This document shows positions 5,606 through 24,182 of a stretch of DNA of 24,507 nt, piece by piece. Source of the stretch: Parcubacteria group bacterium GW2011_GWA2_47_8b (GTDB taxonomy: Bacteria > Patescibacteriota > Minisyncoccia > UBA6257 > WO2-44-18); NCBI GenBank assembly GCA_001003205.1, contig LCOU01000002.1, forward strand, positions 1 through 24,507, given 5' to 3'. The notes under the pieces are model-generated. The model saw only the letters and a program-made list of their open reading frames with translations. It did not search any database and had not been told where the DNA came from. The position numbers and the translations under genes are program-made. How positions within the stretch are numbered: position 1 is the stretch's first letter; each line of letters opens with the position of its first letter.

Positions 5606-5914
5606 CCCCTTCGTAAAGTCTCCTCGGGAACCGGAGTCGGCTCCCTGCCTGCCGGCAGGCAGGGCTCCGGCGGCTCGCCGCTCCTAGGGACTCGCCGATT
5701 TGCCAATAGTTAAGAGTTAATTATAACTATTGACCCAAGCCAAATCGGCTCCGTCACTTTCCCTACAGGAGACTTTACGAAGGGGTTACGTTTACCGGCC
5801 ACTATCCTATAGGATAGTGGCTAGAACCCTCCCCCAAGAATGTCTTTGAGGGAAAGTGGAAGATATTGTTGGGGGAGGGGCGTATAAGATGGAGAGGAGA
5901 CTTTACGAAAGGGG
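5606..5914. repeat. Composite palindromic (REP/MITE-like) intergenic patch
   Basis: 19-bp perfect IR CCCCTTCGTAAAGTCTCCT (5606-5624)/AGGAGACTTTACGAAGGGG (5767-5785), with a third copy at 5895-5914 (+1 A). Palindromes at 5643-5664 and 5798-5821. 11-bp IR at 5827-5837/5869-5879. Confidence 0.85.
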
Positions 5915-5953
5915 AGGAATGTCAGAGAGGGGATTTTGTGTTAAATTTACCGT

Positions 5954-6544
5954 ATGACATTTTTGGAGAGCTTCGTCCTTATAAATCCGCTCATAGCCTA
6001 TTTAATTTTATTCGGGGGAATGTTTATTGAAGGGGAGATATTTTTCCTAACTGCCAGTATTTTTGCCCTTGAGGGCTATTTGAACTTGTGGTGGGTGGCC
6101 GGCGTGGCCTTTGCCGGCGTCATTATTGGAGACGTGGCTTGGTACTATCTTGGCCGCTATTCAAAAGAAACCAGGATAGGGAATTGGGTAAGTCGGAAAT
6201 TTGAAAAACACCAAGGGTGGCTATTGGAGAATATTCAGAATCACTATGTACGCCTCGCCTTTTTTTCTAAATTTTTGTATTACGTAAATCGGATTACGCC
6301 GCTTTTGGCCGGCTGGCAAAAAATGGATTTTAAAAAATTTTTTAAGACTCATTTGATTGCCGGATTTGCTTGGGTGGTGGCCATGACGATACTCGGTAAA
6401 TTTTTCGGCTTGATTATTATAGCCATTGGCACTAAAAAAGTATTTCGCGGCATCCACTGGTTTTTTATCAGCTTGGCGGTGTTGGTTATTGGCGGCGAAT
6501 TTATTTTGAAGCGCTTGTTTGTTAGAAAAGTAATAAAACATTAA
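5954..6544 (+). CDS. DedA family membrane protein
   Basis: FIEGE..., GVIIGDVAWYYLGR and LAGWQKMDFKKF motifs with hydrophobic helices typical of DedA/SNARE-associated proteins. Confidence 0.85.
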   Translation: MTFLESFVLINPLIAYLILFGGMFIEGEIFFLTASIFALEGYLNLWWVAGVAFAGVIIGDVAWYYLGRYSKETRIGNWVSRKFEKHQGWLLENIQNHYVRLAFFSKFLYYVNRITPLLAGWQKMDFKKFFKTHLIAGFAWVVAMTILGKFFGLIIIAIGTKKVFRGIHWFFISLAVLVIGGEFILKRLFVRKVIKH

Positions 6545-6563
6545 GGTGAGTTATACTTAAAAA

Positions 6564-8102
6564 ATGAGCTTGTTTAAACCAAAACCGAAATTGAAGATTT
6601 TATTTGTAGCCACCGAGGCCGCTCCTTTTGCCAAGGCCGGGGGATTGGGGGAGGTGATGTTTTCTTTACCAAGAGCGTTGGTAAAACTTGGTTACGATGC
6701 TCGGGTTATGGTTCCGCGCTACGCCGGCATAGATCTAAACCAATACAATCTTAAAATGGAATTGGAAGGCTTGATGATTCCCACTGACGCGGAAGGGGAA
6801 AGTGAGCCGCGTTACTTGACGTGCAATGTCCGGAAATACGAAGCCGGCGGTATGCCGCGCTCTCCCGTTACGACTTATTTTTTGGAGAACATGGAATACT
6901 ATGAGCAGCGAGCTAATGTCTATGGCTATGCCGATGATGCCGCTCGCTGGGCGCTTTTATGCCGGGGCGTGCTGGAATTTTTGCGCTCGTATAGAAATTG
7001 GAAGCCGGACGTGATTGTTGCCGCCGATTGGCAGACCGGATTCTTGCCCAATTATCTGAAAACCATTTATAAAAACGATCCGTTGCTTGCCTCCATTGCG
7101 ACCGTTTTTACAATTCACAATCTTTATTACCAAGGAATGTTTGATCACCGATTTGTTTCAGAAATGGATTTTGACGACGGCCAATCGCCGGTTGGATCTC
7201 TTTTCAATCCGCGATTGCTGAAGCTTAACGGAATGCGGCGGGGGATTATGTTTGCCGATGTGATTACCACGGTTTCACCAGGCTATGCCAAGGAAATAAC
7301 CACGCCCGAATACGGCGAATTGTTGGACGGATTATTGAGGGAGCGGCGCTCACGGCTGTACGGCGTGATTAACGCCATTGATTATAAGATTTTCAATCCC
7401 GAACTAAGTCCGAATTTAGCCAAACATTACAGTGCCGGTAATTTTGCCAACCGGATTCTCAATAAAACCCATCTTCAAGGCCGCTTCGGTTTGCCCAAAG
7501 ATGAAAAGGTCTTTATTCTCGCGGTCGTTGCGCGTCTTATAGAACAAAAGGGATTTGACTTGCTTCTTCCGGTTGCTGACCAGCTTTTAAATGCGATGAA
7601 TATGCAATTAGTGGTGCTGGGAAACGGCGATGCGAAGTATATGAGTTATTTCCAAGATTTAGAAAAACGATTCCCGGGCCGGGTCGCGGCCAATCTGGTT
7701 TTTGATAAAGAACTTCCGCATTTGATTTACGCGGGAGCGGACGCGGTTTTGGTTCCCTCCAAATTTGAACCTTCGGGCCTGACCCAAATGGAAGCGATGC
7801 GTTATGGTTGCATTCCGATTGTGAGAAAAACAGGCGGCTTGGCCGATACGGTAGAAGATTACGATCCCGGCAAAAATACGGGTACCGGATTTGTGTTTGA
7901 GAACTTTGATTCCATGTCTCTGGTGGTCGCCATTACCCGCGCCTATGAAAATTATCGCAGTTCGGAAATTTGGAGCGGACTGCAGCGTCGAGCGATGGAT
8001 AAAGATTTTTCCTGGAAAAAATCAGCGGATGAATACGCAAAAGTGTTCGCAATCGCCAAATCAATTGTTGAAAATTCTGAAGGCAAGAATGTACTGGGCT
8101 AA
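6564..8102 (+). CDS. glgA: Glycogen/starch synthase (GT5)
   Basis: EAAPFAKAGGLGEV (KxGGL), VFTIHNLYYQG, VPSKFEPSGLTQMEAMRYG and TGGLADTV. Confidence 0.93.
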   Translation: MSLFKPKPKLKILFVATEAAPFAKAGGLGEVMFSLPRALVKLGYDARVMVPRYAGIDLNQYNLKMELEGLMIPTDAEGESEPRYLTCNVRKYEAGGMPRSPVTTYFLENMEYYEQRANVYGYADDAARWALLCRGVLEFLRSYRNWKPDVIVAADWQTGFLPNYLKTIYKNDPLLASIATVFTIHNLYYQGMFDHRFVSEMDFDDGQSPVGSLFNPRLLKLNGMRRGIMFADVITTVSPGYAKEITTPEYGELLDGLLRERRSRLYGVINAIDYKIFNPELSPNLAKHYSAGNFANRILNKTHLQGRFGLPKDEKVFILAVVARLIEQKGFDLLLPVADQLLNAMNMQLVVLGNGDAKYMSYFQDLEKRFPGRVAANLVFDKELPHLIYAGADAVLVPSKFEPSGLTQMEAMRYGCIPIVRKTGGLADTVEDYDPGKNTGTGFVFENFDSMSLVVAITRAYENYRSSEIWSGLQRRAMDKDFSWKKSADEYAKVFAIAKSIVENSEGKNVLG

Positions 8103-9492
8103 CTTCCTTCATATTTATCAGCCGCCGACTCAAAAAGAAATTTGGGTCAGGAGAATAACCGACGAATGTTATAGAAAGCTGTTCGCTGGCATTTTAAAAA
8201 CCCTGCCTCATCGGCAGGCAGGCCTGCCCGCCGGTGAGGTGGGTAAACACGCGCGGCTGACATTGAACATTAATGGCATTTTATGCGAACTTTTGGACAA
8301 GCATGGCGGCCGGGATGTCCTGGAAAACATTAAAAAACTTTTGCAAAACGGCACGCTGGAACTAACCGGTAGCGCGAAGTTTCACGCCTTTTTGCCGTTG
8401 TTACCGGAAAGCGAAATTGAGCGGCAGATACTTTTAAATGAAGCAATTCTTGATAAATATTTTGGGAATTTGTGGCGCGGGCCTGCCGGTAATGGCTTTT
8501 TCAGCCCAGAAATGGCTTATTCCCACAAGGTGGCGGCGGTGGCCGCCCGGCTTGGCTATAAATGGATGGTTATGGATGAGCTTGGTTTTCCGTCGGGGAA
8601 AAAGTATTCGCCGGACACGATATACAAAATAAAAGGCCTGGAAGACTTCTCCGTTTTTTTTAGAGAGAGAAATTTGTCTTTTACGATTTTGTCGGCGCAG
8701 GTTGGCACCGTCCCTACCATATTGCGCTATCTTGGCCAGCGTTTGGAAAAAAACGAATACGTGGTTACGGCAATGGACGGCGAGACCTTCGGGCATCATA
8801 GGCCCGGCCTGGAAACGCTCCTGTTTGATTTGTTGAGTGAAAAAAAGATACAGTCATTGGCGATTGGAGATTTGCCCGGCAAATTCACAAAAACGGAAGA
8901 AATAGAACCAAAAGAATCTACTTGGGCGGTTACAAAAAATGATATTAAAAACAATACGCCCTTTTCCCGTTGGAATAAAAGCGATAACCCAATACAGCAA
9001 AATCAGTGGGAATTGACCAATATTGCCATTGCGGCGGGCAACCGAGCGCCCGTTGACGATAAAGTCCGCGGTTTGTTGGACGCGGCTCTTCACTCCGACC
9101 AATATTGGTGGGCCTCTGCTCGCCCGTGGTGGAGTTTGGAAATGATGGAGCGCGGCGCTTATGAGCTTAAGCAAGTCGTTTTAGAAGCTCCCGCTTCAAC
9201 GGTCCAAGAAAAAAATAGGGCAGAGGAATTATATCGCAATATTGTTTACACCGCCTTGGAGTGGCAGCGGAGCGGTTTAGTAGACGCGATTTCCCGACAA
9301 GAAGACGAGGAGGTGCGCGAACGATTGGAAGAAAAGGAGCAACTCTTCATAACTAAAGATGAGTATCGGCAAATGATTGCCACGCTGGAACAGCAGATGC
9401 ATCTGGCGGCCAAGGCCGAGGAATACCACCGGGCCGCGATGATTAAAGACAGAATTCGGGAGCTTAACGAGGAAATGGAAAAACAGAAATGA
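8089..9492 (+). CDS. Glycoside hydrolase family 57 protein with a C-terminal UvrB/UvrC (UVR)-like motif
   Basis: N-terminal ANFLHIYQP, FHAFLPL, catalytic PEMAY and DGETFGHH, HSDQYWWAS. C-terminal LEQQMHLAAKAEEYHRAAMIKDRIREL. Start at ATG 8089 overlaps the glgA end by 14 nt. Confidence 0.88.
   Translation: MYWANFLHIYQPPTQKEIWVRRITDECYRKLFAGILKTLPHRQAGLPAGEVGKHARLTLNINGILCELLDKHGGRDVLENIKKLLQNGTLELTGSAKFHAFLPLLPESEIERQILLNEAILDKYFGNLWRGPAGNGFFSPEMAYSHKVAAVAARLGYKWMVMDELGFPSGKKYSPDTIYKIKGLEDFSVFFRERNLSFTILSAQVGTVPTILRYLGQRLEKNEYVVTAMDGETFGHHRPGLETLLFDLLSEKKIQSLAIGDLPGKFTKTEEIEPKESTWAVTKNDIKNNTPFSRWNKSDNPIQQNQWELTNIAIAAGNRAPVDDKVRGLLDAALHSDQYWWASARPWWSLEMMERGAYELKQVVLEAPASTVQEKNRAEELYRNIVYTALEWQRSGLVDAISRQEDEEVRERLEEKEQLFITKDEYRQMIATLEQQMHLAAKAEEYHRAAMIKDRIRELNEEMEKQK
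8202..8243. repeat. Two tandem 21-nt CCTGCC..GGCAGG-family palindromic units inserted in-frame in GH57
   Basis: CCTGCCTCATCGGCAGGCAGG + CCTGCCCGCCGGTGAGGTGGG = 42 nt, giving the LPHRQAGLPAGEVG segment. Confidence 0.8.
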
Positions 9493-10535
9493 AGTATAAA
9501 TTTTATACGAAATCCGAAAAAGCTTGGGTGGCAATGCTCCAAGACATCAAAGAGGCAAAACACTCCATATATTTGGAGAGTTTTATTTTAACCGACGATT
9601 CGTCAACTCATAATTTTTTTGAAGTACTCAAAGAAAAAGCGCGCCAAGGCGTGATGGTCAAAATAATAATTGATCGCGTTGGCAATCTTTGGCTTGGCTC
9701 AATCAATAGAAAAGAATTTGAAGAGGCGGGAGCTGAAATGCTTTTTTTTAACCGCTGGTTTTATCACTCGCACAGGAAAATTCTGGTCATTGACGAGTCC
9801 GTCGCTTATATTGGCGGAGTGAATGTGGGAGGCGCTTACGCCAATTGGCTGGACTTGCACGTCCGTCTCACCGGAAAGTTGGCGCGCAGCCTTTCTAAAT
9901 CCTTCAGCAGAGTCTACGGCATTGCCGGTGGGCAAGACCCGGCAATTTTAAACATAAGAAAACAACGGAAACTTCCCAAGGCGCGGACAGGGTTATATAA
10001 AGCGAAGTCCTGGCTCATTGAGCATTGGCCCATAAAAGGAAAATCGGCTTTGCGGTATTACTACAAGAAAAAATGCGCCGAGGCAAAAAAAAGCATTACG
10101 ATTGTTACGCCTTATTTCATTCCGCACCGCTGGCTGATTAGATCGTTGCGGGCCGCCGCTAACCGCGGCGTCAAGATTGAGGTAATCGTGCCGGAAAAAA
10201 CTGATGTTTTCATAGCCAACATCGCCCATAGAGTTTTTGCCGACAGCTTAAAAGGCATTCTAACAATTTATTTTATTCCGGAAATGAATCACGCCAAAGT
10301 TTTATTGATTGATAATCGCGATGGATTAGTGGGCTCCAATAACATTGATGCCCAAAGTTTTGATTTTAACTTGGAGGCAAGTATTAGCTTCAGGCGCAAG
10401 GATATGGTGGGGGATCTTAGAACAATTTTAGAGCGTTGGAAGAAATTAGCCGTCCCTTTTAACCCGCACGCTTTGTTGCGCTGGTACTATTATTTCTTGG
10501 GATTTTTTATAAGAATTATTCAGCCGATATTGTAA
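9489..10535 (+). CDS. Phospholipase D family protein (cardiolipin synthase-like)
   Basis: Two HxKxxxxD motifs (HRKILVID and HAKVLLID), GGVNVG and GSNNID..SF; ATGA overlap with GH57. Confidence 0.9.
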   Translation: MKYKFYTKSEKAWVAMLQDIKEAKHSIYLESFILTDDSSTHNFFEVLKEKARQGVMVKIIIDRVGNLWLGSINRKEFEEAGAEMLFFNRWFYHSHRKILVIDESVAYIGGVNVGGAYANWLDLHVRLTGKLARSLSKSFSRVYGIAGGQDPAILNIRKQRKLPKARTGLYKAKSWLIEHWPIKGKSALRYYYKKKCAEAKKSITIVTPYFIPHRWLIRSLRAAANRGVKIEVIVPEKTDVFIANIAHRVFADSLKGILTIYFIPEMNHAKVLLIDNRDGLVGSNNIDAQSFDFNLEASISFRRKDMVGDLRTILERWKKLAVPFNPHALLRWYYYFLGFFIRIIQPIL

Positions 10536-11366
10536 TGAAAAACACGGGGAAAAAAATCGTGGTCATTGGCGGAGGTACTGGCGTGTTTACCGTTCTTTCG
10601 GGGCTTAAAAAATATTTTTCTGATCTGACGGCCGTCGTTACCATGGCCGATGACGGTGGCTCTACCGGGATTTTGCGCGAGGAATTTGGAATTTTGCCCC
10701 CGGGTGATATTCGCCGGGCGCTTATTGCCCTTTCAACATCCGACAATAAAATGCTGTCCCAGCTTTTTAATTATCGTTTCGCGGAAGGCGGCGGGCTGTC
10801 GGGCCATAGTTTTGGCAACTTAATGATTACCGCGTTGGAGCGGCTTACTGGCAGTTTTGACAAAGCCGTAGAGGAGACGGGAAAGCTTCTTTCGGTGCGC
10901 GGCCGGGTTTTGCCTGTAACCCTGAAGAAAACCGCCCGGTATTTAAACAAGCAAAGCAATTTTTTAAATTGTTATCGGACCGGGAGATTTGTTTACGAGT
11001 TTAATTCCCAATCTTCTGGTTGATGGAATGAGGGAAGCGTTGAAAAAAAGTCGTGCGAAAAAAATTTATTTTGTTAATCTGATGACCAAATTCGGAGAAA
11101 CAACCGGTTTTCAGGCGTCGGATTTTTTACGGACTATAGAGGAGTATCTCGGCAAAAATATTTTGAATTATGCCGTCGTGAACAAGACCAAGCCGACCGC
11201 GATGCGTTTTCGGCCGTATTCCAAAGAAAGAGCAGAGGTTGTTGAGCCGGATTTGAAAAATTTCAACGCTTCCCCCATACCAATCGCCGCAAATCTTCTT
11301 CGTCGGTACGGCTTGCTTAGGCATGACCCAGAAAAAATTGCCGAGATCGTCAGAATGCTTATTTAA
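10535..11366 (+). pseudogene. yvcK: YvcK/UPF0052 (CofD-like) gene with an internal deletion and frameshift
   Basis: GGGTG, DDGGSTG and GHSFGNL lie in the frame of 10535, but IVIGPGDLFTSLIPNLLV..NLMTKFGET lies in another frame from about 10968. The usual segment between VLPVT and IVIGPG is missing. Confidence 0.75.
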
Positions 11367-11974
11367 CCCGCCTTTCTTATTCTAGAAATTACAAAATCTC
11401 CCACTAGAACCAAAATAATGCCGAGATTGTTAACGAGGAGATCGCTGGAAGTATCAAATGCCCCGGTGACGTTGTGGGCGCCATAGTAGCGATCGCCGAT
11501 CAATTCGGCAATTTCGTAAATTACGCTAAACAGATTGGTGGTGGTCAGAGTAACGTAATAAACGACTATTCTGGGGATGTTGTATTGGTAAAATCTGGAA
11601 ATTACTCGTATTAGATTCAAAAAAAACACCGTGCCTAAGATTCCGGTAGAAAAATGCACAATTTTATCGAAATTTTGTATTTCAAAAAGAGAAAATGTAT
11701 TGGCGCCGAAATCAATGCCGCCAAGGGCGGTTCCCAGAGCCCAAAAAACGGCAGGCAAGTGGCCAAAACGCGTTCGTTTCAAGTACCAATGAGCGCCCTC
11801 TAGAACAAACCAAAGTACAATCGTGGTAAGAAACGGCCCGAGCCAAAGCCTGCCCCATGCGGCCGGTGAGAGGTCGGATTGATCTGCGACCAGGCCATTA
11901 TAAAGCACATAAAAAAGAGTGGCCGCCAAAAAACCGCGGCAAAAATTGACAACCCACTTATTTTGCGACCTCAT
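11363..11974 (-). CDS. Multi-pass membrane protein (DUF2238/VanZ-like motifs)
   Basis: Several hydrophobic helices with FDKIVHF, IYEIAE and [12 protein letters not shown] motifs; its start overlaps the recA stop by 17 nt. Confidence 0.7.
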
Positions 11975-12962
11975 AGATCTTCTTTTCTATGGCACGAATA
12001 AGTTTTTTATCTTCCGCCAGCTTGGCTTTCACGGCCTCTATGCCGATGCCTAATTTCTCACCTTCAAAACTGTAACTGGCGCCGGCTTTTGTAATAACTC
12101 CATACTTAAGCGCGGAATTTGCCACATCGGCTTCGTAGGAAAGCCCCTCTCCGTACATAATGTCAAACTCGGCCAGCTTAAACGGAGGAGCAACTTTATT
12201 TTTGACCACTTTGGCGCGGACTCGGTTGCCGACGACGTTGTCTCCCTTTTTAATTTGAGCTTCTCGCCGCACGTCTATTCGCACCGAACAGTAAAATTTA
12301 AGCGCCCGTCCGCCCGGGGTAACTTCCGGGTTGCCGAACATAATGCCGATTTTCTCCCGCAATTGATTAATGAAAATAACAAGGGTGTTGGATTTGGCGG
12401 TAATGGCGGTGAGTTTGCGCAGCGCCTGCGACATTAATCGGGCCTGCAGTCCGATGAATTGGGCGCCCATTTCTCCCTCTATTTCCGCTTTCGGGGTCAG
12501 TGCCGCAACGGAGTCAACTACTACTACGTCAATTATCCCGGAGCGAACCAAGCTTTCCAGGATGTTCAACGCCTCCTCGCCGTTATCCGGCTGTGAAATC
12601 AGCAGTTCTTTGACTTTCACTCCGAGTCTTGCGGCATATTCCGGGTCTAGGGCGTGCTCGGCATCTATGAAAGCGGCCTTGCCCCCTTTATTTTGGGCTT
12701 GGGCTACAACATTGAGCGCCAGCGTGGTTTTTCCGGAAGACTCCGGTCCATAAATTTCCACGATTCTGCCCTTGGGCAATCCACCTACTCCCAGCGCCAA
12801 ATCCAACGAGAATGAACCCGTCGGAATCACATCAACGTTGACCCGCTTGGCTTCGCCGAGCCTCATAATCGCTCCTTCGCCGAACTTGCTCTGTAATGTT
12901 TCCAGCAGTCCCGCCAATTCTTTTTCGGTATCCTTTTTTTCCGGTTCGGGTTTATTCATCAT
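11958..12962 (-). CDS. recA: Recombinase RecA
   Basis: [16 protein letters not shown] (Walker A), [17 protein letters not shown] and [16 protein letters not shown]. Confidence 0.99.
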
Positions 12963-12966
12963 TTTA

Positions 12967-13605
12967 TTAATTGTTCTCTTCTTGATAAATTATTTGCTTA
13001 ACTACCTTTGTTTCTTTTCCTAAAAACTTCTTTGCCATGAATTCAAACGTGTTCAAACCGGACTGCAGGCTATAATTTTCCCTGAATTTTCCATCCTTGT
13101 CAACGTAGACCTCTTCGCCGTTAATGAAAAGTTTATCAACGGGGTCCACGTTTCCTTCAAGGACGAATAATGAGTTGTTGACGATAATAGTTGCCTCAAG
13201 CGGATTGGTAATCGCGAGGTCGGGAATGCCGGTAACTTTCCCGGAACTGACGAAAACATATACCATTATCGCGGCAATGATAAGCGCCGGCACAAGCCAT
13301 AGCCGATTTTCGGCCTTGATGGCAAACCGATTTTCCGGCAGGCGGTCGGATGCCCCGGAAGTGCGTATTTCGCTCTCTTCTTGGAATTTTTTCCACAAAA
13401 ATCCGGTTTCTATATCAAGAGCTTGCTCTAATTTTTTAAAATAGCCGCACAAATAGGGCGCGGCCGGCAATTTTTTCCATTCACTTTTAAGTATTGCTTC
13501 CAGGAAATGTTTGGAGATGCCGGTCAACATCGCGGTTTTGTCCAGCGTAAGTCCCTTGGCTTCCAGGCGTTCCAAAATAAAGTCTTTAATCGGCTTATTT
13601 TCCAC
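12967..13605 (-). CDS. RodZ-like protein: N-terminal HTH, one TM helix, C-terminal Ig-like domain
   Basis: [28 protein letters not shown] matches the RodZ HTH pattern; TM helix [17 protein letters not shown]; beta-rich C-terminus ([10 protein letters not shown]); GTG start; lies between ftsK and recA. Confidence 0.8.
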
Positions 13606-13607
13606 GC

Positions 13608-15656: not shown

Positions 15657-15694
15657 GAAGCAGAATGCCTACTATTATTAATACTAATACTAAT

Positions 15695-16153
15695 ATGGAT
15701 CCAATCATATTTAAAGCCTACGATATCCGAGGCCGCTATCCGAAGGAAATTAACGAGGAAGTTGTCGCCAAAATTGCCCGAGAGGTGCGGGGTAGGCTTG
15801 GCGGCGGTAAGATAGTCGTCGGCCACGACGCCCGCTTAAGCTCACCCGCCCTTTATAAATCCGTTCTTCAATCATTAAAAATTAAAAAATTCCTGCCTGC
15901 CCATGCCTACCGGCAGGCAGGCGGCAGGCAGGTAAAATTTAAAATTGAGGCTGTAGGCCTTGCTACTACGCCCATGTTGTATTTCCTCGTGAATAAGTTG
16001 AAGGCCGCTGGCGGCATTATGATAACCGCCTCTCACAATCCCAAAGAATTTAATGGTCTTAAAATCGTCGGAAAAAAAGCGATACCCATTAGCGGTGCAG
16101 AAATTAAAAAATGGTTCCCGTTAGAAGTGGCACCATCTCAAAATCATTTCTAA
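15695..16153 (+). CDS. Phosphomannomutase/phosphoglucomutase, N-terminal part (domain 1)
   Basis: IFKAYDIRG, VVGHDARLSS and catalytic-serine motif ITASHNP; ends at a stop inside the 16116-16220 element; ATG 15695 is the likely start. Confidence 0.85.
   Translation: MDPIIFKAYDIRGRYPKEINEEVVAKIAREVRGRLGGGKIVVGHDARLSSPALYKSVLQSLKIKKFLPAHAYRQAGGRQVKFKIEAVGLATTPMLYFLVNKLKAAGGIMITASHNPKEFNGLKIVGKKAIPISGAEIKKWFPLEVAPSQNHF
15892..15932. repeat. Nested CCTGCC..GGCAGG palindromic element inside the pgm N-terminal ORF
   Basis: Outer arms CCTGCCTGCC (15892-15901) and GGCAGGCAGG (15923-15932) enclose a second 21-nt copy, CATGCCTACCGGCAGGCAGGC. Confidence 0.85.
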
Positions 16154-16220
16154 CGGCCAAATACAAAATTATGTTAATAAGTTATATCAAAACGTCGATG
16201 ATAGACCACTTCTAACGGGA
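16116..16220. mobile_element. 105-bp MITE-like element with 15-bp perfect terminal inverted repeats, splitting pgm
   Basis: TCCCGTTAGAAGTGG (16116-16130)/CCACTTCTAACGGGA (16206-16220); internal extra TTCTAACGG (16148-16156); AT-rich core with in-frame stops; no coding capacity. Confidence 0.65.
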
Positions 16221-17101
16221 TGGACTACCTAAATTTGTACGTAGATTTTTTAAAAAAATTTTTGAAACCAAAACGGCCCCTGCGCATAGTGTTTGATTGC
16301 TCCAACGGAACGGCCGGAACAGTTCTTTCTAAAATTAAATCCGCCAGTCGGCGGATAAAATTGCAAATTATCAACGCCAAGCCGGACGGGAATTTTCCCG
16401 CTCACGGTCCGAATCCGATGTTGAAGGGCGCGATGGGTGATTTGAAAAAAGCCGTTTTGAAGAATAAGGCAGACCTCGGTGTTATTTTGGACGCCGATGG
16501 CGACCGCGTTTTTTTTGTGGACAATTTGGGTCGGGAAATAAATCCGGATGCCGTGGCTGTCTTGATTTCAAAAAATTTTTCAGGCCCAGTAGTTTTGGAT
16601 GTGCGATCGGGATATTTAATTCGTGAAGCGTTAGCCACCGATAAAAAAACGGTGCTTGATTCCCGTGTTGGCCATTATTTCATTAAAAGATTAATGTCAG
16701 AGAAAAAAGCGGACTTTGGGGCGGAAACATCGGGTCATTACTATTTCAAATTTGGGGAGGCGTACTGGGATTCCGGAATTTTCGGCGCAATCCACCTTAT
16801 TAACGCGTTACCCGACGACGTTGCCGCTTGGATTGATCAGCTTCCGAAATATTTTCAATCGGGAGAAATTAATTTTTCTGTTAAAAACAAAACCGCGGCT
16901 TTACAAAAAATAAAATCCATTTACATAAAAGAGGCAAAAAAAACTTCGGAACTGGATGGACTCAAAATGGAATTTGGGAATTGGTGGTTTAATTTGCGGC
17001 CTTCTAATACGGAAAATTTACTGCGACTAAACATTGAGGCTAGGGGAAAAGATATTTTGGACAAACATTTGCGACAAATTACAGAAAACTTGGTAAAATA
17101 A
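16220..17101 (+). CDS. Phosphomannomutase/phosphoglucomutase, C-terminal part (domains 2-4)
   Basis: VFDCSNGTAG, metal loop DADGDR, sugar loop GAETSGHYYF and phosphate site LRPSNTENLLR; same reading frame as the N-terminal ORF. Confidence 0.87.
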   Translation: MDYLNLYVDFLKKFLKPKRPLRIVFDCSNGTAGTVLSKIKSASRRIKLQIINAKPDGNFPAHGPNPMLKGAMGDLKKAVLKNKADLGVILDADGDRVFFVDNLGREINPDAVAVLISKNFSGPVVLDVRSGYLIREALATDKKTVLDSRVGHYFIKRLMSEKKADFGAETSGHYYFKFGEAYWDSGIFGAIHLINALPDDVAAWIDQLPKYFQSGEINFSVKNKTAALQKIKSIYIKEAKKTSELDGLKMEFGNWWFNLRPSNTENLLRLNIEARGKDILDKHLRQITENLVK

Positions 17102-17125
17102 TCACAGTCCCTTTTTGGAGGTGGT

Positions 17126-17380
17126 ATGCGCCGCGTCGTTTTCTTTGTGATTTTGGCGTTCGTCGGGGTTTTTGTATTCGGTTGCCGCAGTCATCATCAC
17201 CGTTCGGATTCTTCCACCGTCTCTGACGGAGGTGACAATACTTCTGATGACGGTGATGAGGACAAGGACAAGCACGAGAACAACGGCGATAACGGCAAGA
17301 ACAACGGCAAGGGACATCACAAGAATTCAGACAAGCCCGGCCATCGTCATCATGGTGATGACGAATCCGAAAACAAGTAA
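17126..17380 (+). CDS. Small putative lipoprotein with an Asp/His/Asn/Gly-rich low-complexity body
   Basis: Strong SD GGAGGT (17117-17122); MRR, a hydrophobic stretch, then VFG-C (lipobox-like); 84 aa. Confidence 0.7.
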   Translation: MRRVVFFVILAFVGVFVFGCRSHHHRSDSSTVSDGGDNTSDDGDEDKDKHENNGDNGKNNGKGHHKNSDKPGHRHHGDDESENK

Positions 17381-17388
17381 TATGATAG

Positions 17389-17952
17389 CTAGAATAGAGT
17401 GGCCGGCAAGTCCACTTCCTGCCAACCCAAAGCTACCTTCATCAGTTCGCCAGTTTGGCGATGAGGCACCATTAGGTGCCTCTGTTTTTTTGCCAGTTCA
17501 TAAAGCTCTTTGGTAATTTTAACGTCGTTAAGGCAATAATTTTTCAGTTCTTCAAAATTACCCTCCCGATAAAATTTAATTGCCTCAAGCCCGTGGTGTG
17601 TTTTTCCGATACCGAGATTCGTTTTTGCCAGAATATCCAGGCTAATGCGGCTACCCAGACCGATTTCCACCTCTTCCAGGAGGTCCAGTCGGGGAATGCC
17701 CCAGATGTCAAAATTGACGTATTTTTCCAGAACCGGAATGTCAAAACGATTGATGCTAAAGCCGATTATCAAGCCGGCTTTTTTTAGAAGTTCATTTAAT
17801 TCGCCGAACTGATTTTCAAAAAAAGAAAAGTAAGCATCCTTGTTGTACGAATAAACGCCGACGAAAGAAGCGTCCAGTTTTTTGATATGTTCTTGCCCGC
17901 CAACGTCGGCAAAGGTATTTTTTGTTTCTATGTCTATTACAAGTTTATCCAT
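17389..17952 (-). CDS. RNase H-like DEDD exonuclease-domain protein (RNase_H_2/YprB-like)
   Basis: LVIDIET, IIGFSINRFDIPVL and YCLNDV acidic motifs. Confidence 0.82.
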   Translation of the reverse strand: MDKLVIDIETKNTFADVGGQEHIKKLDASFVGVYSYNKDAYFSFFENQFGELNELLKKAGLIIGFSINRFDIPVLEKYVNFDIWGIPRLDLLEEVEIGLGSRISLDILAKTNLGIGKTHHGLEAIKFYREGNFEELKNYCLNDVKITKELYELAKKQRHLMVPHRQTGELMKVALGWQEVDLPATLF

Positions 17953-17955
17953 TGG

Positions 17956-18438
17956 CTAGACATGCCGGTCGGCTACGTTAGACGCGGCATAACTTTCGGG
18001 CTTGGTTTTTACCTCAAAATTGTTGGCGCGAATCATTCCTACTAATTCCTGGATCATAACTTTTGAAGCGCCGTTTTCACCGACATCAATATGAATTTCA
18101 AAATCAAACTTTGGCGCTTCCATTTGTTTTAATTCGCTCAAGAATTCTTTGGCGGCTTCTAACGAAATCAGCACTTCGTGGGTTATGCGATCGCGCAGGG
18201 TGTGGAATTTTCCTGGATTATCAATACGCCGCCAAAAGTAGCGGCCTCCGCGGCCGACTCGGTGAACTACAATGGCGGTCACAAAGTCGGCGAGATCGTT
18301 GTGAGTTCTAAGCGAATCGGTGCCAATGGTTATCTTGTATTCCTTTTGAGAATCGGCCCTCATAAAGTTAACTATTTCCCGCCCTACCTGTTCGGCGCTC
18401 ATTTTTAACCCCACGGAGCTATTGAAAAAATCTGACAT
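17956..18438 (-). CDS. RNase H-like YkuK (DUF458) family protein
   Basis: ITIGTDS, FVTAIVVHRVGRGGRYF, EIHIDVGENG and KPESYAASNVAD. Confidence 0.82.
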   Translation of the reverse strand: MSDFFNSSVGLKMSAEQVGREIVNFMRADSQKEYKITIGTDSLRTHNDLADFVTAIVVHRVGRGGRYFWRRIDNPGKFHTLRDRITHEVLISLEAAKEFLSELKQMEAPKFDFEIHIDVGENGASKVMIQELVGMIRANNFEVKTKPESYAASNVADRHV

Positions 18439-18465
18439 TGGCTATAAAGTAACTCTTTTTAGGGT

Positions 18466-19767
18466 ATGAAGTCAATTTATTTAGATTACGCCGCCTCAAC
18501 GCCTATTGATCCGCGGGTTGTAGCGGCGATGTCGCCTTATTTTACCGAAATTTTCGCCAATCCCAATTCCCTTCATCGCTTCGGCCAAGAAGCGTCCCGG
18601 GCCGTTTTTGTTTCACGTCAAACAATTGCCCGCTCTCTTGGCGCCGATTATAAGGAAATTATTTTTACGGGTTCGGCAACCGAAGCGAATAATCTAGCCT
18701 TGCGAGGCTCGATTAAAGCGATCCAAAAAATTCAAATACATTCGAATAATTCGAATGGAAATTCGGATATTTTGAATCGCCCAAGAATTATCGTTTCCGT
18801 GATTGAGCACGAATCGGTTCTAGAAACCTGCCGAGATTTGGAAAAGGAAGGAGTGGAGGTAATTTACATTTCCGTTAATAAGGAAGGAATTGTGGATTTG
18901 AAAAAGTTGAAGTCGACATTAAACGACCGAACTGTATTAGTTTCCGTGATGTATGCCAACAACGAAATTGGCACCATTCAGCCCATTGATAAAATTTCTG
19001 AAATTATCAGAAATTTTAGAGAATCAAGAATCAAGAATCAAGAATCAAGAAAGGCGGATTCAAAATTCATAATTCATAATTCTTTATTCCCGCTATTTCA
19101 TACCGACGCCGTCCAGGCATTTCAATATTTGGATTGTAACGTGAAGAATTTAGGCGTTGATCTAATGACCCTCTCGGCTCATAAAATATACGGACCGAAG
19201 GGAATAGGGGCGCTCTATGTGCGCGATGCGATTCAAAAAATTCAAATACATTCGAATAATTCGAATGGAAATTCGGATATTTCGGATCGCTTGCTAGCAC
19301 CCATAATAACTGGCGGCGATCAAGAAAACGGTTTGCGTTCCGGCACGGAAAATGTTTCCTATATTGTCGGTTTCGCCAAGGCGGTGGAAATTGCCGATAA
19401 GGTGAGGGGGCCAGAGTCGGCTCGCGTGGAAAAATTGCGAAACTATTTTTGGCGATCGCTTCAAAAGGCGTTTGGTTCAAAATCAATCGCGCTAAACGGG
19501 TCTCTGCAAAATCGCCTGCCGAATAACCTCAATATTTATTTTGCCGGCCGGAGCGCGCAGGAGTTGCTGATTAAACTTGACTTGGTTGGCGGAGTGGCCG
19601 CCTCATCCGGCGCCGCTTGCGCTACGCGCGTGAATAAGGAGTCTCATGTATTGAAGGCGCTCGGTTTTACGCCCGCGCGCGCGTCGGGAAGTTTAAGATT
19701 CAGTTTGGGCCGTCCGACTACAAAAAAAGAAATAGACTCGGCGGTTGAAAAGTTGAAAAACCGTTAA
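18466..19767 (+). CDS. iscS: Cysteine desulfurase (IscS/NifS), expanded by three low-complexity insertions
   Basis: YLDYAASTP, FTGSATEANN, HTDAVQ, PLP-lysine motif TLSAHKIYGPKG and catalytic Cys motif SSGAAC. Confidence 0.93.
   Translation: MKSIYLDYAASTPIDPRVVAAMSPYFTEIFANPNSLHRFGQEASRAVFVSRQTIARSLGADYKEIIFTGSATEANNLALRGSIKAIQKIQIHSNNSNGNSDILNRPRIIVSVIEHESVLETCRDLEKEGVEVIYISVNKEGIVDLKKLKSTLNDRTVLVSVMYANNEIGTIQPIDKISEIIRNFRESRIKNQESRKADSKFIIHNSLFPLFHTDAVQAFQYLDCNVKNLGVDLMTLSAHKIYGPKGIGALYVRDAIQKIQIHSNNSNGNSDISDRLLAPIITGGDQENGLRSGTENVSYIVGFAKAVEIADKVRGPESARVEKLRNYFWRSLQKAFGSKSIALNGSLQNRLPNNLNIYFAGRSAQELLIKLDLVGGVAASSGAACATRVNKESHVLKALGFTPARASGSLRFSLGRPTTKKEIDSAVEKLKNR
18718..19290 (+). repeat. 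63-bp direct repeat (18718-18780 and 19228-19290) and heptamer arrays (19021-19083) inside iscS
   Basis: The two 63-bp copies match at 60/63 and both encode AIQKIQIHSNNSNGNSDI; (GAATCAA)x4 at 19021-19048; ATTCAAA-ATTCATA-ATTCATA-ATTCT at 19058-19083. Confidence 0.92.
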
Positions 19768-19792
19768 TTTTGTGTTAATCTGTCAGTAGAAA

Positions 19793-22405
19793 ATGCCTAA
19801 TTTCAACCGTTTCACAATCAGGGCGCAGGAGGCGATACAAAGCGCTCAAGAGCTTGCCGCCCAGCGAAATCACGGCGAATTTAAAATTGTTCACCTTCTT
19901 TTTGCGTTAATTAGCGACGAGCAATCCTTGGTTCGTCCCATGCTGGTCAAGGCCGGCGTCAATTTGGATGTCTTATATAGGGAGATTGAGGAAGAGCTCA
20001 AAAAAATGCCCAAGATTTTTACGACTTCCAATGTCGGCCAGCTTTATCTTTCACCGGAGTTGATGCAGGTTTTGGATAAGGCCGGTAAAATCGCCATTTC
20101 CCAAAAGGACGAATATATTTCCTGCGAGCATTTGCTTTTGGGCATTTTAGACTTCGCTTCCTCGGCGCAAAAAATATTGGAAAGATTCGGGTTGAAACGA
20201 GACGCGGCTTTTCGGGCGCTGGCGCAACTGCGCGGCTCCGCGCGGGTAACCGATGAAAGTCCCGAGAGTAAATTTCAGGTTTTGGAAAAATACGCCGTCA
20301 ATCTTACCGATCGGGCGCGCGAGGGGAAATTGGATCCGGTTATCGGCCGTAGCGAAGAGTTGCACCGCTTGATTCAGGTTTTGAGCCGCCGCACCAAAAA
20401 CAATCCGGTTTTGATAGGGGAGTCGGGGGTGGGCAAGACGGCGATTGTTGAAGGGCTCGCCCAAAGAATTATTTCCGGCGACGTTCCTGAAACCCTAAAA
20501 GACAAAGAAATTATTATGCTTGACTTGGGGTCGCTCATTGCCGGCACTAAATTCCGCGGCGAGTTTGAGGACCGGCTCAAGGCTTTTGTTAAGGAAATTC
20601 AGAATGCCGCCGGCCGGCTTATTTTATTCATTGACGAAATTCATATGATTGTCGGCGCTGGCGCCGCCGAGGGCGCCATTGACGCCTCCAATCTCCTTAA
20701 GTCACCGCTCGCCCGCGGCGAACTTCATGCCATTGGCGCCACCACCACCAGGGAGTACCAGCGTCACATAGAGAAAGACGCGGCCTTGGAGCGCCGTTTT
20801 CAGCCCATCGTAGTTGAGGAACCCAGCGTTGAGGACGCGGTTCTGATTTTGCGCGGGCTTAAGGAAAAATACGAAATGCATCACGGTTTGCGCATTAGCG
20901 ACGAGGCGATTATCGCCGCCGTTAATCTTTCGGCGCGTTATATCAGCGACCGTTTTTTGCCGGACAAGGCCATTGATTTAATTGACGAGGCGGCGGCGGC
21001 TCGCCGCCTGGAAGCCGAAAGCCTGCCGACGGAAATAGAGAAGGTAAGGCGTGAAATTACCCGCAACGAAGTGGAGCGCTCGGCAATAAGCGGAGATGCC
21101 TCGCCTAATAGCAAGGCTCGTCTTAAAGTTCTCAAAGACTCAATTGAAAAACTTAAATCAAAAGACGAAGATTTGTCGGCTTCCTGGCGCGGGGAAAAAC
21201 TTGCCATGGAAAATTTGCACAATCTTCGCAAAAAAATAGATGACCTCAAGCGCCAGGCGGAAGTGGCGGAACGGGAAGGAAATTTGGAAGGGGTGGCAAA
21301 AATAATTTACGGTACTTTGCCGCAGGCCGAGAAGGATTACAAAAATTTTGAGAAAAAGAATGCCAAATCCGGCGGCTTTATCAGAGAATCGGTTGACCCT
21401 GAAGACATCGCGGCGGTGGTTTCCCGCTGGACGGGCATTCCGGTCAGCAGAATGCTGGAATCAGAAGCGAAAAAATTGACGCGCATTGAGGAGACGCTGG
21501 GTCAGAGAGTTATCGGCCAGAGCGAAGCCTTGAGCGCCGTTGCCAATTCGTTGCGGCGGGCGAGGGCCGGTTTGGCGGACGAGAATCGGCCGCTGGGTTC
21601 CTTTATGTTTTTAGGCCCAACCGGCGTAGGCAAAACCGAACTGGCCCGTACGCTGGCCGAATTTATGTTCAATGACGAAAAAGCGATTGTCCGCATTGAT
21701 ATGTCGGAATATATGGAAAAGCATTCCGTTGCCCGATTGATTGGTTCGCCGCCGGGCTATGTTGGTTTTGAGGACGGCGGTCAACTTACCGAAATCATTA
21801 GGCATCGCCCGTACAGTTTGATTTTGTTTGATGAAATTGAAAAAGCTCACCCCGAGGTATTCAATATCTTGTTGCAAATTTTGGACAACGGCCGATTGAC
21901 CGATGGCAAGGGTAAGCTGGTCAACTTCAAGAACGCGATTATTATTATGACCTCCAATGTTGGCAGCCAGTACTTCAAGGAAATGTCCAGGTTGGGATTT
22001 GTCTCCGATGGCAATCAGGCGGAGGCCAAAGAAGCTGATTTAAAAGAAAGGATTTTGGAATCTCTGAAGCGCACGTTCAAGCCGGAATTTTTGAACCGCA
22101 TAGATGAAACCGTCGTATTTAATACGCTCCGCAAAAAAGAAATAGAAAAAATAGTTGATTTGCAGGTTGAAATGCTTAAAGAGAGGCTAAAGGAGCGCAA
22201 TATTAAAATTAATATTGATACGGCGGCCAAGAAATATATAGTAGATAATGGCTTTGACCCGGAATATGGCGCCAGGCCGATTCGGCGCTTGATTCAAAAA
22301 GCTATTCTGGACAAGCTAGCGGATAAAATTATAGGCGGTCAAATAAAAGATGGCGACAAAGTTAAAATCAGTTTTGAAAAGTCCTCAATTACTGTTAGCT
22401 CTTAA
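19793..22405 (+). CDS. clpB: ATP-dependent chaperone ClpB
   Basis: Clp N-domain, two AAA+ modules (GESGVGKT and GPTGVGKT), [21 protein letters not shown]-like motif and a long coiled-coil middle domain. Confidence 0.96.
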
Positions 22406-23057
22406 AGCTGTTGCGTTTGGCATCGGCCTGAACTTTTTGCCGGCGGCGCTTTTTGTGCCGCTGGCTATTTTACTGTACGCAATCCCGTTTTTTAGGACCA
22501 TTGAGCTCATCCGCCCCCTCTCCGTTCTTGTAGTTGTTTCCTTGCTTGCTTTGCGAACTGTAAACAGGTGGGATTACTCGCTGTTTTTGGTTGTATATTT
22601 CGCCTTTTTATTTTATTTGATTTTGGGGATTAAAGACTTAGTCGTGATAAAGAGAGCCGGCTGGTACCGGTTTTTGAACCTGGCGCTGGTGCATATGATC
22701 CTGCTCCTGTTTTTTTACTACAATCAGGAATTTTTCTTGATAAAACTCGTAATCGTCTTCTGCGCGCTTCTATTTTTACTAAAAGAGCTGTTAAAGAATC
22801 GTTTGGTAGTTTGGCTGCTTGCCTTTTTAATGACGCAAAGCATTTGGGCGATTGGCCTCTTGCCAGTTGGTTTTATAAACGCCGCCAATTTTGGACTGCT
22901 CGCCTATTTTATTATGTTGGACTTGGCCGAATATCAACTTTCAGGCCCTGCCTACCGGCAGGCAGGCTATTTGCCTCGCCGACGGATTTTAACAGATGTG
23001 ACTATTTTCGTTTTGTTGGCGCTTTTGATTTTTGCCACGTCCCGTTGGGGGCTTTAA
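22350..23057 (+). CDS. Multi-pass membrane protein of unknown function
   Basis: About seven hydrophobic helices. The start is uncertain: ATG 22350 overlaps clpB by 56 nt. Contains an in-frame palindromic insert at 22947-22966. Confidence 0.72.
   Translation: MATKLKSVLKSPQLLLALKAVAFGIGLNFLPAALFVPLAILLYAIPFFRTIELIRPLSVLVVVSLLALRTVNRWDYSLFLVVYFAFLFYLILGIKDLVVIKRAGWYRFLNLALVHMILLLFFYYNQEFFLIKLVIVFCALLFLLKELLKNRLVVWLLAFLMTQSIWAIGLLPVGFINAANFGLLAYFIMLDLAEYQLSGPAYRQAGYLPRRRILTDVTIFVLLALLIFATSRWGL
22947..22966. repeat. CCTGCCTACCGGCAGGCAGG palindromic element in the membrane-protein CDS
   Basis: 19/20 identical to the intergenic palindrome at 5644-5663; encodes PAYRQAG. Confidence 0.85.
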
Positions 23058-23321
23058 GAGTGTCCCGCTTGCCTGAATTGTCTGTAAGGACCGGCGGTTC
23101 TTTTGCCCAGCGGCAAAATCCCGCCTATGGGCTCACCGCGAAACTTTTATTTAACCTCCTATTATAAATAAAAGACCATGCTTTCGCGGCTCCGCCAATT
23201 CCTTTCAGAAGAGTTTGTGTGGGAGTTCGCTCTATGACAGGCGCTCGCTTGGGTTTCGGAGAAAAGAAAGTGGCGGAGGGAGACAAAATGATTCTCTTAG
23301 CAAAACCAAAAGCGCCGTGTT

Positions 23322-24182
23322 TTAGGGTTGAGTGTTGTTATTCAGATATTGCCGGAACTCTTTGCCCAGTTTTTTGTGATGTAGGCCAAAATAGGCCTGG
23401 GCCTGCATAAGGCCGATCATTGAACCGGCATCAAATCGCTTTCCCTTAAAGTGCCACCCGTAAATCCTGCCACCTTCATATATATAGTTCTTTAACGCGT
23501 CGGCCAAGCCGATTTCTTTGCCGTGATACGGGTAGAGCTTGCCTATCTCATCCAAGATGGCAGGCGTCAGCACATACCTTCCTATAATAGTAAGGTTTGA
23601 CGGCGCTTCGGAGGGTGCCGGTTTTTCTATCACATCGGTAATTGGTATTAGGGATTTACCTGCCTGCCGGCAGGCATGGGACTCTGCCCGCCTCGGGTAG
23701 GCAACTACCCCATAACGTGAAACGGATTTTATAGGGACCGACTCCAGAGCCAGCGTTGGGGAGCCCGTTTTATTGAATAAATCTATTAATGTTTTCATGG
23801 GCGGCTTTTTTTCCACCAGCAAGTCATCGCTGAAACAGACGAGAAACGGCCTGCGTTTTAAATACTTTCTAGCGGCAAATACCGCGTCGCCGTTGCCCCA
23901 GGGATTTTTCTGAACGGCGAGGTCAATTTTTACCTTAGACTTTCGCCATTCCGGATCGGTTTTAATAAAATCCAGATATTTTTTAAATTCCGGCTGGTTG
24001 GGTTTGGTTACTATTATAATGTGGCGAATTCCCGCCGCCACAATTTCGTCTATTACATAGTGGACCATCGGACGATCAACGATGCCAATCATTGCCTTCG
24101 GCTGATGAAGCGTTAACGGCATCACTCTGGTTCCCAAACCGGCAACCGGCAATACGGCAATCTTAACGGGGTTGACTTTCAT
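23322..24182 (-). CDS. galU: UTP--glucose-1-phosphate uridylyltransferase family nucleotidyltransferase
   Basis: AVLPVAGLGTR...PKAM...DRPMVHY, Q..PWGNGDAV, FSDD, YGVV, EKP and IIGRYVL motifs. Confidence 0.85.
   Translation of the reverse strand: MKVNPVKIAVLPVAGLGTRVMPLTLHQPKAMIGIVDRPMVHYVIDEIVAAGIRHIIIVTKPNQPEFKKYLDFIKTDPEWRKSKVKIDLAVQKNPWGNGDAVFAARKYLKRRPFLVCFSDDLLVEKKPPMKTLIDLFNKTGSPTLALESVPIKSVSRYGVVAYPRRAESHACRQAGKSLIPITDVIEKPAPSEAPSNLTIIGRYVLTPAILDEIGKLYPYHGKEIGLADALKNYIYEGGRIYGWHFKGKRFDAGSMIGLMQAQAYFGLHHKKLGKEFRQYLNNNTQP
23659..23702. repeat. CCTGCC..GGCAGG-family element plus a degenerate second unit inside galU
   Basis: CCTGCCTGCCGGCAGGCATG (23659-23678), then GGACTCTGCCCGCCTCGGGTAGG; gives PRRAESHACRQAG in the protein. 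Confidence 0.8.

Follow-up and report, generated by a model that had tools for sequence, protein, structure and literature searches.

Very small repeats with the appearance of mobile DNA are known from cyanobacteria. The small dispersed repeats (SDR) SDR1-8 of Nostoc punctiforme and its relatives, reportedly set out by Elhai and co-workers in 2008, are said to be 21-27 nucleotides (nt) long, dispersed and apparently mobile, with precise insertion, nesting and location in tandem heptamer arrays. We know of no enzyme for the cyanobacterial SDRs. Here we describe a 20-nt palindrome, CCTGCCTGCCGGCAGGCAGG (hereafter P), in a 24,507-nt stretch of DNA from the groundwater organism Parcubacteria group bacterium GW2011_GWA2_47_8b. 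This stretch (the window) is contig C2 (LCOU01000002.1) of assembly G000, which comprises 451 kb in 45 contigs with 47% G+C and is estimated to be 67% complete. We conclude with high confidence that P itself is a mobile, selfish hairpin micro-element, with selection keeping the reading frames that it enters. A fuller reading, to which we give a probability of about 0.55, is that P is a non-autonomous, hairpin-forming mobile element which is served in trans by a GIY-YIG nuclease of ~85 amino acids (aa) and is spread by phages.

Several other palindromic elements offer parallels. Rickettsia palindromic elements are 100-150 bp long, are found in Rickettsia only, and lie in frame in protein genes, where they are tolerated as surface peptides. 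The G+C-rich palindromic clusters of mitochondria in yeast and other fungi are mobile. Their units of 30-50 nt stand in tandem or nested arrays within AT-rich DNA, coding regions among it, and occur together with genes for GIY-YIG homing endonucleases (for Fusarium, compare PMC7218506). Repetitive extragenic palindromic (REP) sequences are extragenic, imperfect and species-specific, and flank the gene of their REP-associated tyrosine transposase (RAYT) (PMC3116915). The Ssn proteins are a small GIY-YIG family which cuts single-stranded DNA beside its own hairpin repeat, NTS/SRM (Chenal et al., 2025; PMC11893778). The flank of an SRM is conserved and oriented, the repeats usually lie on both sides of the gene, and only 2% are located in genes; Ssn is presented as modulating transformation in a restriction-like way, and no role as a mobiliser is ascribed to it (PMC11893778). 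Among the SDRs, SDR5 inserts precisely inside the HIP1 octamer (PMC4390886).

P fits best among the very small palindromic mobile repeats of cyanobacteria, as a pan-phylum variant of that type. Like the SDRs it is very short (20-21 nt for P), inserts precisely (+20 or +21 nt), nests in other copies (with entry after base 11), and sits in heptamer arrays (5 of 13 sites). The sequences are different, however, and SDRs are confined to cyanobacteria whereas identical copies of P occur in about ten phyla and in phages. It is also a perfect palindrome, often stands within genes in frame, and has a link with a nuclease cassette. In its link with a small nuclease-type gene it recalls the REP-RAYT and Ssn-SRM pairs. 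The original prediction, which was made from the sequence of the window alone, drew an analogy with the Rickettsia palindromic elements. In-frame insertion in protein genes is indeed shared, and is the one shared feature, but the unit of P is only 20-21 nt, five to seven times shorter, and its hosts belong to many other phyla. The fungal mitochondrial clusters resemble P as short GC-rich palindromes which invade AT-rich DNA including coding regions, tandem and nested, with GIY-YIG genes alongside; they differ in being organellar, in having target-site features of their own, and in lacking sequence identity across phyla.

A motif search of the window found P or near copies at 5644, 15902, 22947 and 23659, against a chance expectation of 0. 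The first is a perfect, non-coding copy (5644-5663) within a 22-nt palindrome (5643-5664), near the apex of an imperfect hairpin in a miniature inverted-repeat transposable element (MITE) of ~170 nt. This host MITE (5610-5781) has the terminal inverted repeats TTCGTAAAGTCTCC / GGAGACTTTACGAA. In a gene identified by its Pfam GH57 match, two degenerate 21-nt units stand in tandem (8202-8243, forward strand) and add the 14 residues TLPHRQAGLPAGEV. Domain I of pgm carries a 41-nt nested composite (15892-15932, forward strand), in which an inner copy of 21 nt, belonging to the T/A sublineage, divides an outer P 10/10, a design that recurs at C9:16676 and C37:3117. A membrane-protein gene holds P with one G-to-A change (22947-22966, forward strand), read as PAYRQAG, and galU holds a 21-nt sublineage copy, the T variant plus an extra G (23659-23679, reverse strand), read as HACRQAG at residues 169-175. 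Each of these sites had been picked out in the original prediction, and the intergenic, tandem, nested and membrane-gene copies are all present as it described them. In galU the single copy was borne out, but the "degenerate unit" placed beside it (~23680-23702) was rejected as ordinary coding sequence. That segment aligns gap-free to the corresponding segment of a sister genome, G001, and galU therefore has one 21-nt insertion only.

Across G000 there are 42 copies of P at ≤3 mismatches, at least 22 of them perfect, compared with 0-2 in shuffled genomes. With the 21-nt variants that have one extra base the family reaches ~50 copies (shuffles again 0-2), or ~1 per 9 kb, and P makes up ~0.2% of the genome. 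It is by far the commonest perfect palindrome of G000, no other coming near it in number. A literature search for P and its sub-strings found no publication, and a search of the window with Rfam returned only three tRNAs, with no family covering P or its host MITEs.

The mobility of P was assessed against empty sites. G001 is a same-genus reference, syntenic and with ~80% nucleotide identity to G000, and its whole genome was used for the alignments; each P site of G000 with an orthologous G001 counterpart was aligned. Clean insertions were obtained at 16 sites, 13 in genes and 3 non-coding. Ten gene sites are +21 nt relative to G001 (C2:22947, C2:23659, C12:2421, C13:5618, C14:9846, C27:3254, C33:4649, C37:2373, C8:6874, and the inner copy at C9:16676), two are +42 nt (the GH57 gene of the window and C5:6624), and one is +33 nt (C9:2449). 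At the GH57 insertion point the G001 protein reads GILKIKNARL, without the 14 residues. The non-coding insertions are all exactly +20 nt. The copy at 5644 was compared with two paralogous, P-less copies of its host MITE in G001 (C1:44473-44629 and C9:13884-14035). The copies at C1:7733 and C1:7820 were compared with a P-less copy of another MITE of ~200 nt, at ~23058-23260 of the window, where 23112-23131 is the empty reference site at which paralogues on C1, C10, C12, C16 and C19 carry P. The proposal that insertions in genes are filtered to multiples of three thus finds clear support, with 21, 33 or 42 nt at 13/13 coding sites as against 20 nt at 3/3 non-coding ones. The insertions post-date the split between G000 and G001.

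Homologues of individual proteins agree with this picture. The galU insert is found in 2 of 39 aligned sequences (the query and a 96%-identical relative) and is absent from the other 37. In the AlphaFold model of GalU, which has a mean predicted local distance difference test score (pLDDT) of 89, the sole segment below 50 is residues 166-174, the insert itself, between two strands. This agrees with the loop expansion that had been proposed, and P inserts are predicted to sit in protein surface loops. The pgm insertion point is likewise a loop which has no insert in most other genera, and it holds GC-rich inserts of independent origin in several lineages; in G001 the position is taken by a different palindrome, of 18 nt. 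A second family of GC-rich palindromes, with the core CCGCCAGCTGGCGG, occupies this pgm hot spot on G001 C2 (the orthologue of window 15892). It also occurs at C5:10873 and C10:5918 of G000 and in other phyla (L019, L024; L-numbers denote loci from other genomes), beside A/T-rich heptamers. In most genomes of the family the pgm gene itself (window 15665-17101; L213-L230) is in two parts, divided at the domain I/II boundary, with domain I frames of 130-166 aa. G001 has the split gene too, and there, in an A-rich run, the ATG of the second open reading frame (ORF) overlaps the first at its end. It may be a conserved split gene or a case of programmed frameshift.

None of the six reading frames of P contains a stop codon; the element is therefore read through and gives a 7-residue insert, and copies are read in all three frames on either strand. 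Of 21 copies in long ORFs, 12 read LPAGRQ, 5 PACRQAG and 4 CLPAGR, LPAGRQ being the only reading without cysteine. These observations bear on the idea that P is a functional motif kept by selection, such as a protein-binding site, an uptake or segregation signal, a terminator or a peptide motif. Perfect conservation of 20 nt across phyla would suit a motif of this kind, as would the one orthologous copy that is unchanged between G000 and G001. It is, however, at odds with reading in every frame and on either strand, and with the empty sites in the sister genome and in 37 of 39 galU orthologues. P also occurs alike in tRNA-like pieces, MITEs and genes, and older copies decay (the outer copy at C9:16676 in G001). 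We regard a selected function as highly improbable.

The copies of P fall into sublineages. All 12 copies of the T variant, which has a T near one end, share one extra base beyond the palindrome, and every T-variant copy found in G000 lies in an ORF. A second 21-nt form, with an extra central C, recurs four to five times, and a third, with a CAT centre, is common to the GH57 gene and one G001 site. Shared diagnostic changes of this kind indicate descent from master copies rather than convergence, and the 21-nt sublineages with an extra base show that the copying of P can take in at least one flanking base. Inside genes, only copies which add a multiple of three survive, either as P plus one base or as 21-nt sublineages propagating as such.

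No target-site duplication was found at the 16 clean insertion sites in the G000/G001 alignments, and a search for a target-flank consensus at insertion sites found none. Direct repeats beside P in other phyla had suggested a 7-nt target duplication, but this was rejected, as the empty sites of G001 hold the heptamer arrays with nothing duplicated. Two further candidates were discarded. P is not a MITE or solo terminal repeat of an insertion sequence, given the lack of target duplication at the 16 sites and of any parent element, and no insertion sequence with P halves as its termini was found, since all half-sites are variants of P with no long element bounded by them.

Insertion with neither duplication nor consensus would also be expected if there were no dedicated enzyme and host repair copied P into breaks or stalled forks, by short-patch templated synthesis, with fold-back self-templating keeping the palindrome perfect. 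The copying of one or more flanking bases in the 21-nt sublineages fits such a process too. So does the orthologous copy at C27:5682, where P is identical at 20/20 positions in G000 and G001 and the flanks differ by ~16%, as gene conversion would give; this identity hints at homogenisation among copies or at repeated insertion. Host repair nevertheless leaves unexplained the identity of P across about ten phyla and phages, as well as the fixed entry after base 11 and the recurrent link to a nuclease gene, and we think it unlikely.

A RAYT, that is a transposase of the Y1 HUH class, was suggested by analogy in the original prediction. HUH transposition leaves no target duplication (IS200/IS605), as is the case for P, and G000 does have a Y1_Tnp gene on C28 (40 bits, over the Pfam cut-off). 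This RAYT-like gene (C28:2821-3546; HUH motif NHYHLL) lies between several copies of an AT-rich hairpin of its own and forms with them a classical REPtron that has no relation to P. There is no P on C28, and P has neither a conserved 5' tetranucleotide nor a target consensus. REP/REPIN-RAYT systems do resemble P as short palindromic repeats which are multiplied in a genome, are believed to depend for their movement on a single-copy enzyme acting in trans, and leave no target duplication (Bertels and Rainey, 2011; PMC3116915). P differs in being intragenic as often as not (at least 21 copies in ORFs of ≥200 aa, 13 verified insertions), in being pan-phylum, and in not lying beside a RAYT; most copies are in genes, unlike REPs. 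The analogy fails for G000, and movement of P as a REP-type repeat by this transposase is very unlikely.

The population was examined in Logan contigs of four sequencing runs from four studies. Independent contigs, some from a strain differing at ~2% of positions, span the window copies at 22947 (runs X1 and X10) and 23659 (four runs) without gaps. Contigs often break or are mis-joined at P, with loose ends, chimeric joints and copies near contig ends, as might be seen with an assembly or sequencing artefact. Since independent assemblies from four studies span the inserts and isolates also carry P (exact P is found in isolate genomes of Bacteroidota), it is not an artefact; the copies moreover carry mutations and keep frames, and we give this explanation next to no credence.

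The targets that P prefers are structured or repetitive DNA. Six or seven of the ~50 copies are nested in another copy, despite the ~0.2% of the genome that P occupies, and entry after base 11 of the host copy is seen in three G000 cases and in two from other phyla (L026, L050). At C9:16676, G001 keeps only a decayed outer copy, so the inner one came later. That P targets its own centre, as had been predicted, is upheld by the number of nested copies, the fixed entry point and this outer-only state. Period-7 tandem arrays are a second target, entered at the boundaries between units, as they make up 0.6% of the G000 genome yet hold 5 of the 13 clean coding insertion sites. The arrays are already present in the empty sites of G001, and are therefore targets rather than duplications; the same context of P recurs in other phyla and in phage contigs. 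G000 has 123 period-7 arrays, mostly A/T-rich (e.g. in iscS, window 19020-19082), and G001 is about as rich in them. Arrays of 32-33 nt (~4.6 units) within genes are frequent, and the arrays may be a second kind of in-frame insert.

P is also found in the D-loop, anticodon loop or variable loop of tRNA genes and tRNA-like pieces, and in the hairpins of larger MITEs, namely the host MITE of the 5644 copy and the ~200-nt family. The common factor of its own centre, tRNA loops and MITE hairpins could be structured single-stranded DNA.

The distribution of P reaches well beyond this genus. Among 41 genomes of the same order (G000-G040, 0.4-1.3 Mb), 25 have P with 1-13 copies each, and G000 has the most. 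A scan for exact P in 596 Gb, with one genome per species, found at least 120 stretches against ~0.5 expected. The hosts come from about ten phyla and include Patescibacteria lineages, Omnitrophota, Bacteroidota, Planctomycetota, Bdellovibrionota, Thermodesulfobacteriota and Chloroflexota. A further 35 stretches are viral contigs, some with four to six copies. The original prediction of a selfish and mobile element is thus supported by empty sites in a congeneric genome, by sublineages with diagnostic changes, and by exact P across phyla and in phage contigs. That it is "active" holds on an evolutionary time scale, but no presence/absence variation of P at window sites was seen in the four data sets.

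No mobilising enzyme is encoded in the window, as was correctly noted in the original prediction. Elsewhere, P adjoins genes for small GIY-YIG nucleases. A family profile search of 128 P-centred loci from other genomes found a GIY-YIG domain in 11, with P 22-41 nt before the domain start in five. The arrangement was also seen in 3 of 29 GIY-YIG loci of the relatives, in one viral locus and in two further cases. In the cassettes (L005, L045, L114, L126, L184, L196, L266, L107 and L085) P usually lies in the D- or anticodon loop of a duplicated 5' tRNA part, which is followed by a spacer, a single-domain GIY-YIG gene of ~85 aa and the intact tRNA. In nine cassettes on different tRNAs, from other genomes and one phage contig, the start codon follows P after 15-33 nt. 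In L068, P and a GIY-YIG domain lie together in frame within a 714-aa ORF, which indicates that the two are not tied to tRNA genes and travel as a unit. A tree of 38 small GIY-YIG proteins, short and poorly resolved, pairs up P-linked genes of different phyla and phage, and another upstream motif, CCCGTTAGA, goes with other GIY-YIG subclades. The nearest solved structures are UPF0213 (1zg2, 1ywl; E 7.5e-15) and SLX1, a structure-specific nuclease, and NCBIfam gave only weak homing-endonuclease matches. Small single-domain GIY-YIG genes occur in 1-10 copies in 38 of the 41 relatives, a heavy load for genomes of 0.4-1.3 Mb.

Pieces resembling these cassettes are present in G000. Partial 5' copies of tRNA-Ile, at C27:6037-6085 and C31:398-490, have P in the D-loop and are each followed closely by an intact tRNA-Ile, and they look like relics of nuclease cassettes without the ORF. 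ARAGORN recovered no credible tRNA from the C27 and C31 pieces with P removed. On C31, a 9-nt stretch upstream of the tRNA pairs with one downstream. In the window, an intact tRNA-Val stands inside a split tRNA-like gene (3779-4044) whose anticodon arm is an 18-nt perfect palindrome, and L023 has a similar nesting, of tRNA-Met inside a split tRNA with P in its D-loop.

The closest documented precedent for the pairing of P and GIY-YIG is Ssn-SRM. In both, a small single-domain GIY-YIG gene adjoins a dispersed hairpin repeat (SRM, 20-50 nt), for P in cassettes from other genomes and not in the G000 assembly. P is symmetric, however, has no flank consensus, is confined to the 5' side of the gene and is frequent within genes, and its nuclease is nearest to UPF0213/SLX1 among solved structures.

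P may nevertheless be mobile without the small GIY-YIG being its enzyme. Both could favour the loops of tRNA genes, the duplicated tRNA part tolerating P, and the true mobiliser could be another enzyme, for instance phage-borne or transient. Several observations lean this way and weigh against the reading that we favour. No P-linked GIY-YIG gene was found in the G000 assembly (67% complete) despite its ~50 copies of P. The sole small GIY-YIG gene of G000 (C14:18049-18279, between two tRNA-Met genes) is of another class, with an AT-rich hairpin upstream and no clear start codon, and the nearby copy of P is ~300 nt away, beyond the next tRNA. GIY-YIG counts do not follow P counts across the 41 relatives, and in G010 none of 13 P copies lies beside any of the four GIY-YIG genes. 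All 25 P-positive genomes have the GIY-YIG family, but so do 38 of the 41, which makes this uninformative. More than 90% of P copies are solo. P also occurs in tRNA-like pieces without an ORF (C27:6037, C31:398, L023, L038), and phage contigs carry several copies. The adjacency could come in part from a shared liking for tRNA loops, together with tolerance in the non-functional duplicated tRNA part. To our knowledge, GIY-YIG enzymes hydrolyse DNA and do not join strands, so a ligation or copying step has to be assumed for the insertion of P. Two further points concern the element itself. The translation of the inserts is predicted from reading frames, and among the joints and indels listed for the four runs, beside which there are 69 further joints, none is a presence/absence variant of P at a window site, in contigs that drop rare variants.

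A different mobiliser is harder to reconcile with the constant spacing between P and the start codon in nine cassettes on different tRNAs, with the joint insertion of P and nuclease in the protein gene of L068, and with the way in which upstream motif and nuclease subclade go together. We regard it as doubtful, although it deserves to be taken seriously, and we hold with moderate-to-low confidence that the small GIY-YIG is the mobilising enzyme of P.

On the reading that we favour, P would spread by copying itself or close variants into new sites without target duplication. Insertion would take place on single-stranded or extruded DNA, at nicks made in loops, and the enzyme would be the ~85-aa single-domain GIY-YIG of the UPF0213/SLX1-like branch. 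It would act in trans on solo copies of P, the two being partners much like Ssn nucleases or RAYTs and their hairpin repeats, and phages would carry the pair of P and nuclease between phyla. A bolder version, which we put forward tentatively and consider less probable than not by a good way, is that P and the nuclease by themselves make up a mobile system of two parts, in which the smallest mobile DNA unit known (20 nt) is matched with the smallest known mobilising enzyme. In this version the nuclease would cut hairpins at their base and open loops (P centres and tRNA-gene loops), host ligation or copying would complete a single-stranded DNA transposition, phages would spread the system over at least ten phyla, and protein loops of essential genes would be remodelled as a side effect.

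If P is mobile as proposed, the known lower size limit of mobile DNA would be 20 nt, with P among the smallest mobile elements seen, and selfish DNA would have a route by which it adds short loops to conserved proteins in extremely streamlined genomes. Identical P in many phyla and phages points to ongoing horizontal traffic into bacteria of the candidate phyla radiation. There would be practical interest, for work with single-stranded DNA, in a small nuclease with specificity for one defined 20-nt hairpin, as has been argued for Ssn (PMC11893778). For annotation, P explains odd 7-residue inserts (LPAGRQ etc.), contig breaks and chimeric joins in metagenome assemblies.

The window has further repeats and insertions. 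Repeated MFHAKQMFHVKH-type ORF pieces, which have no relation to P, lie either side of yraN (4903-5592). Between the two pgm ORFs (16111-16220) is a 109-nt insert, made up of a 105-nt MITE with CCCGTTAGAAGTGG terminal repeats and a 4-nt ATGG duplication. Contigs in 3 of the 4 runs skip this insert exactly, which shows that the population is polymorphic for it; the split in pgm was not caused by this MITE. It has 4-5 copies in G000 and others in G001, and its CCCGTTAGA motif is the one that also closely precedes one subclass of the small GIY-YIG genes of relatives. The MITE of ~200 nt at 23058-23260 has terminal inverted repeats of ~35 nt and an internal hairpin with compensatory changes between copies, of which there are at least eight in G000, often at contig ends. 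This copy is polymorphic too, as some contigs in all four runs have 24 other bases instead. At 17229-17233, contigs of another strain have 21 extra bases (8+8+5) in three runs.

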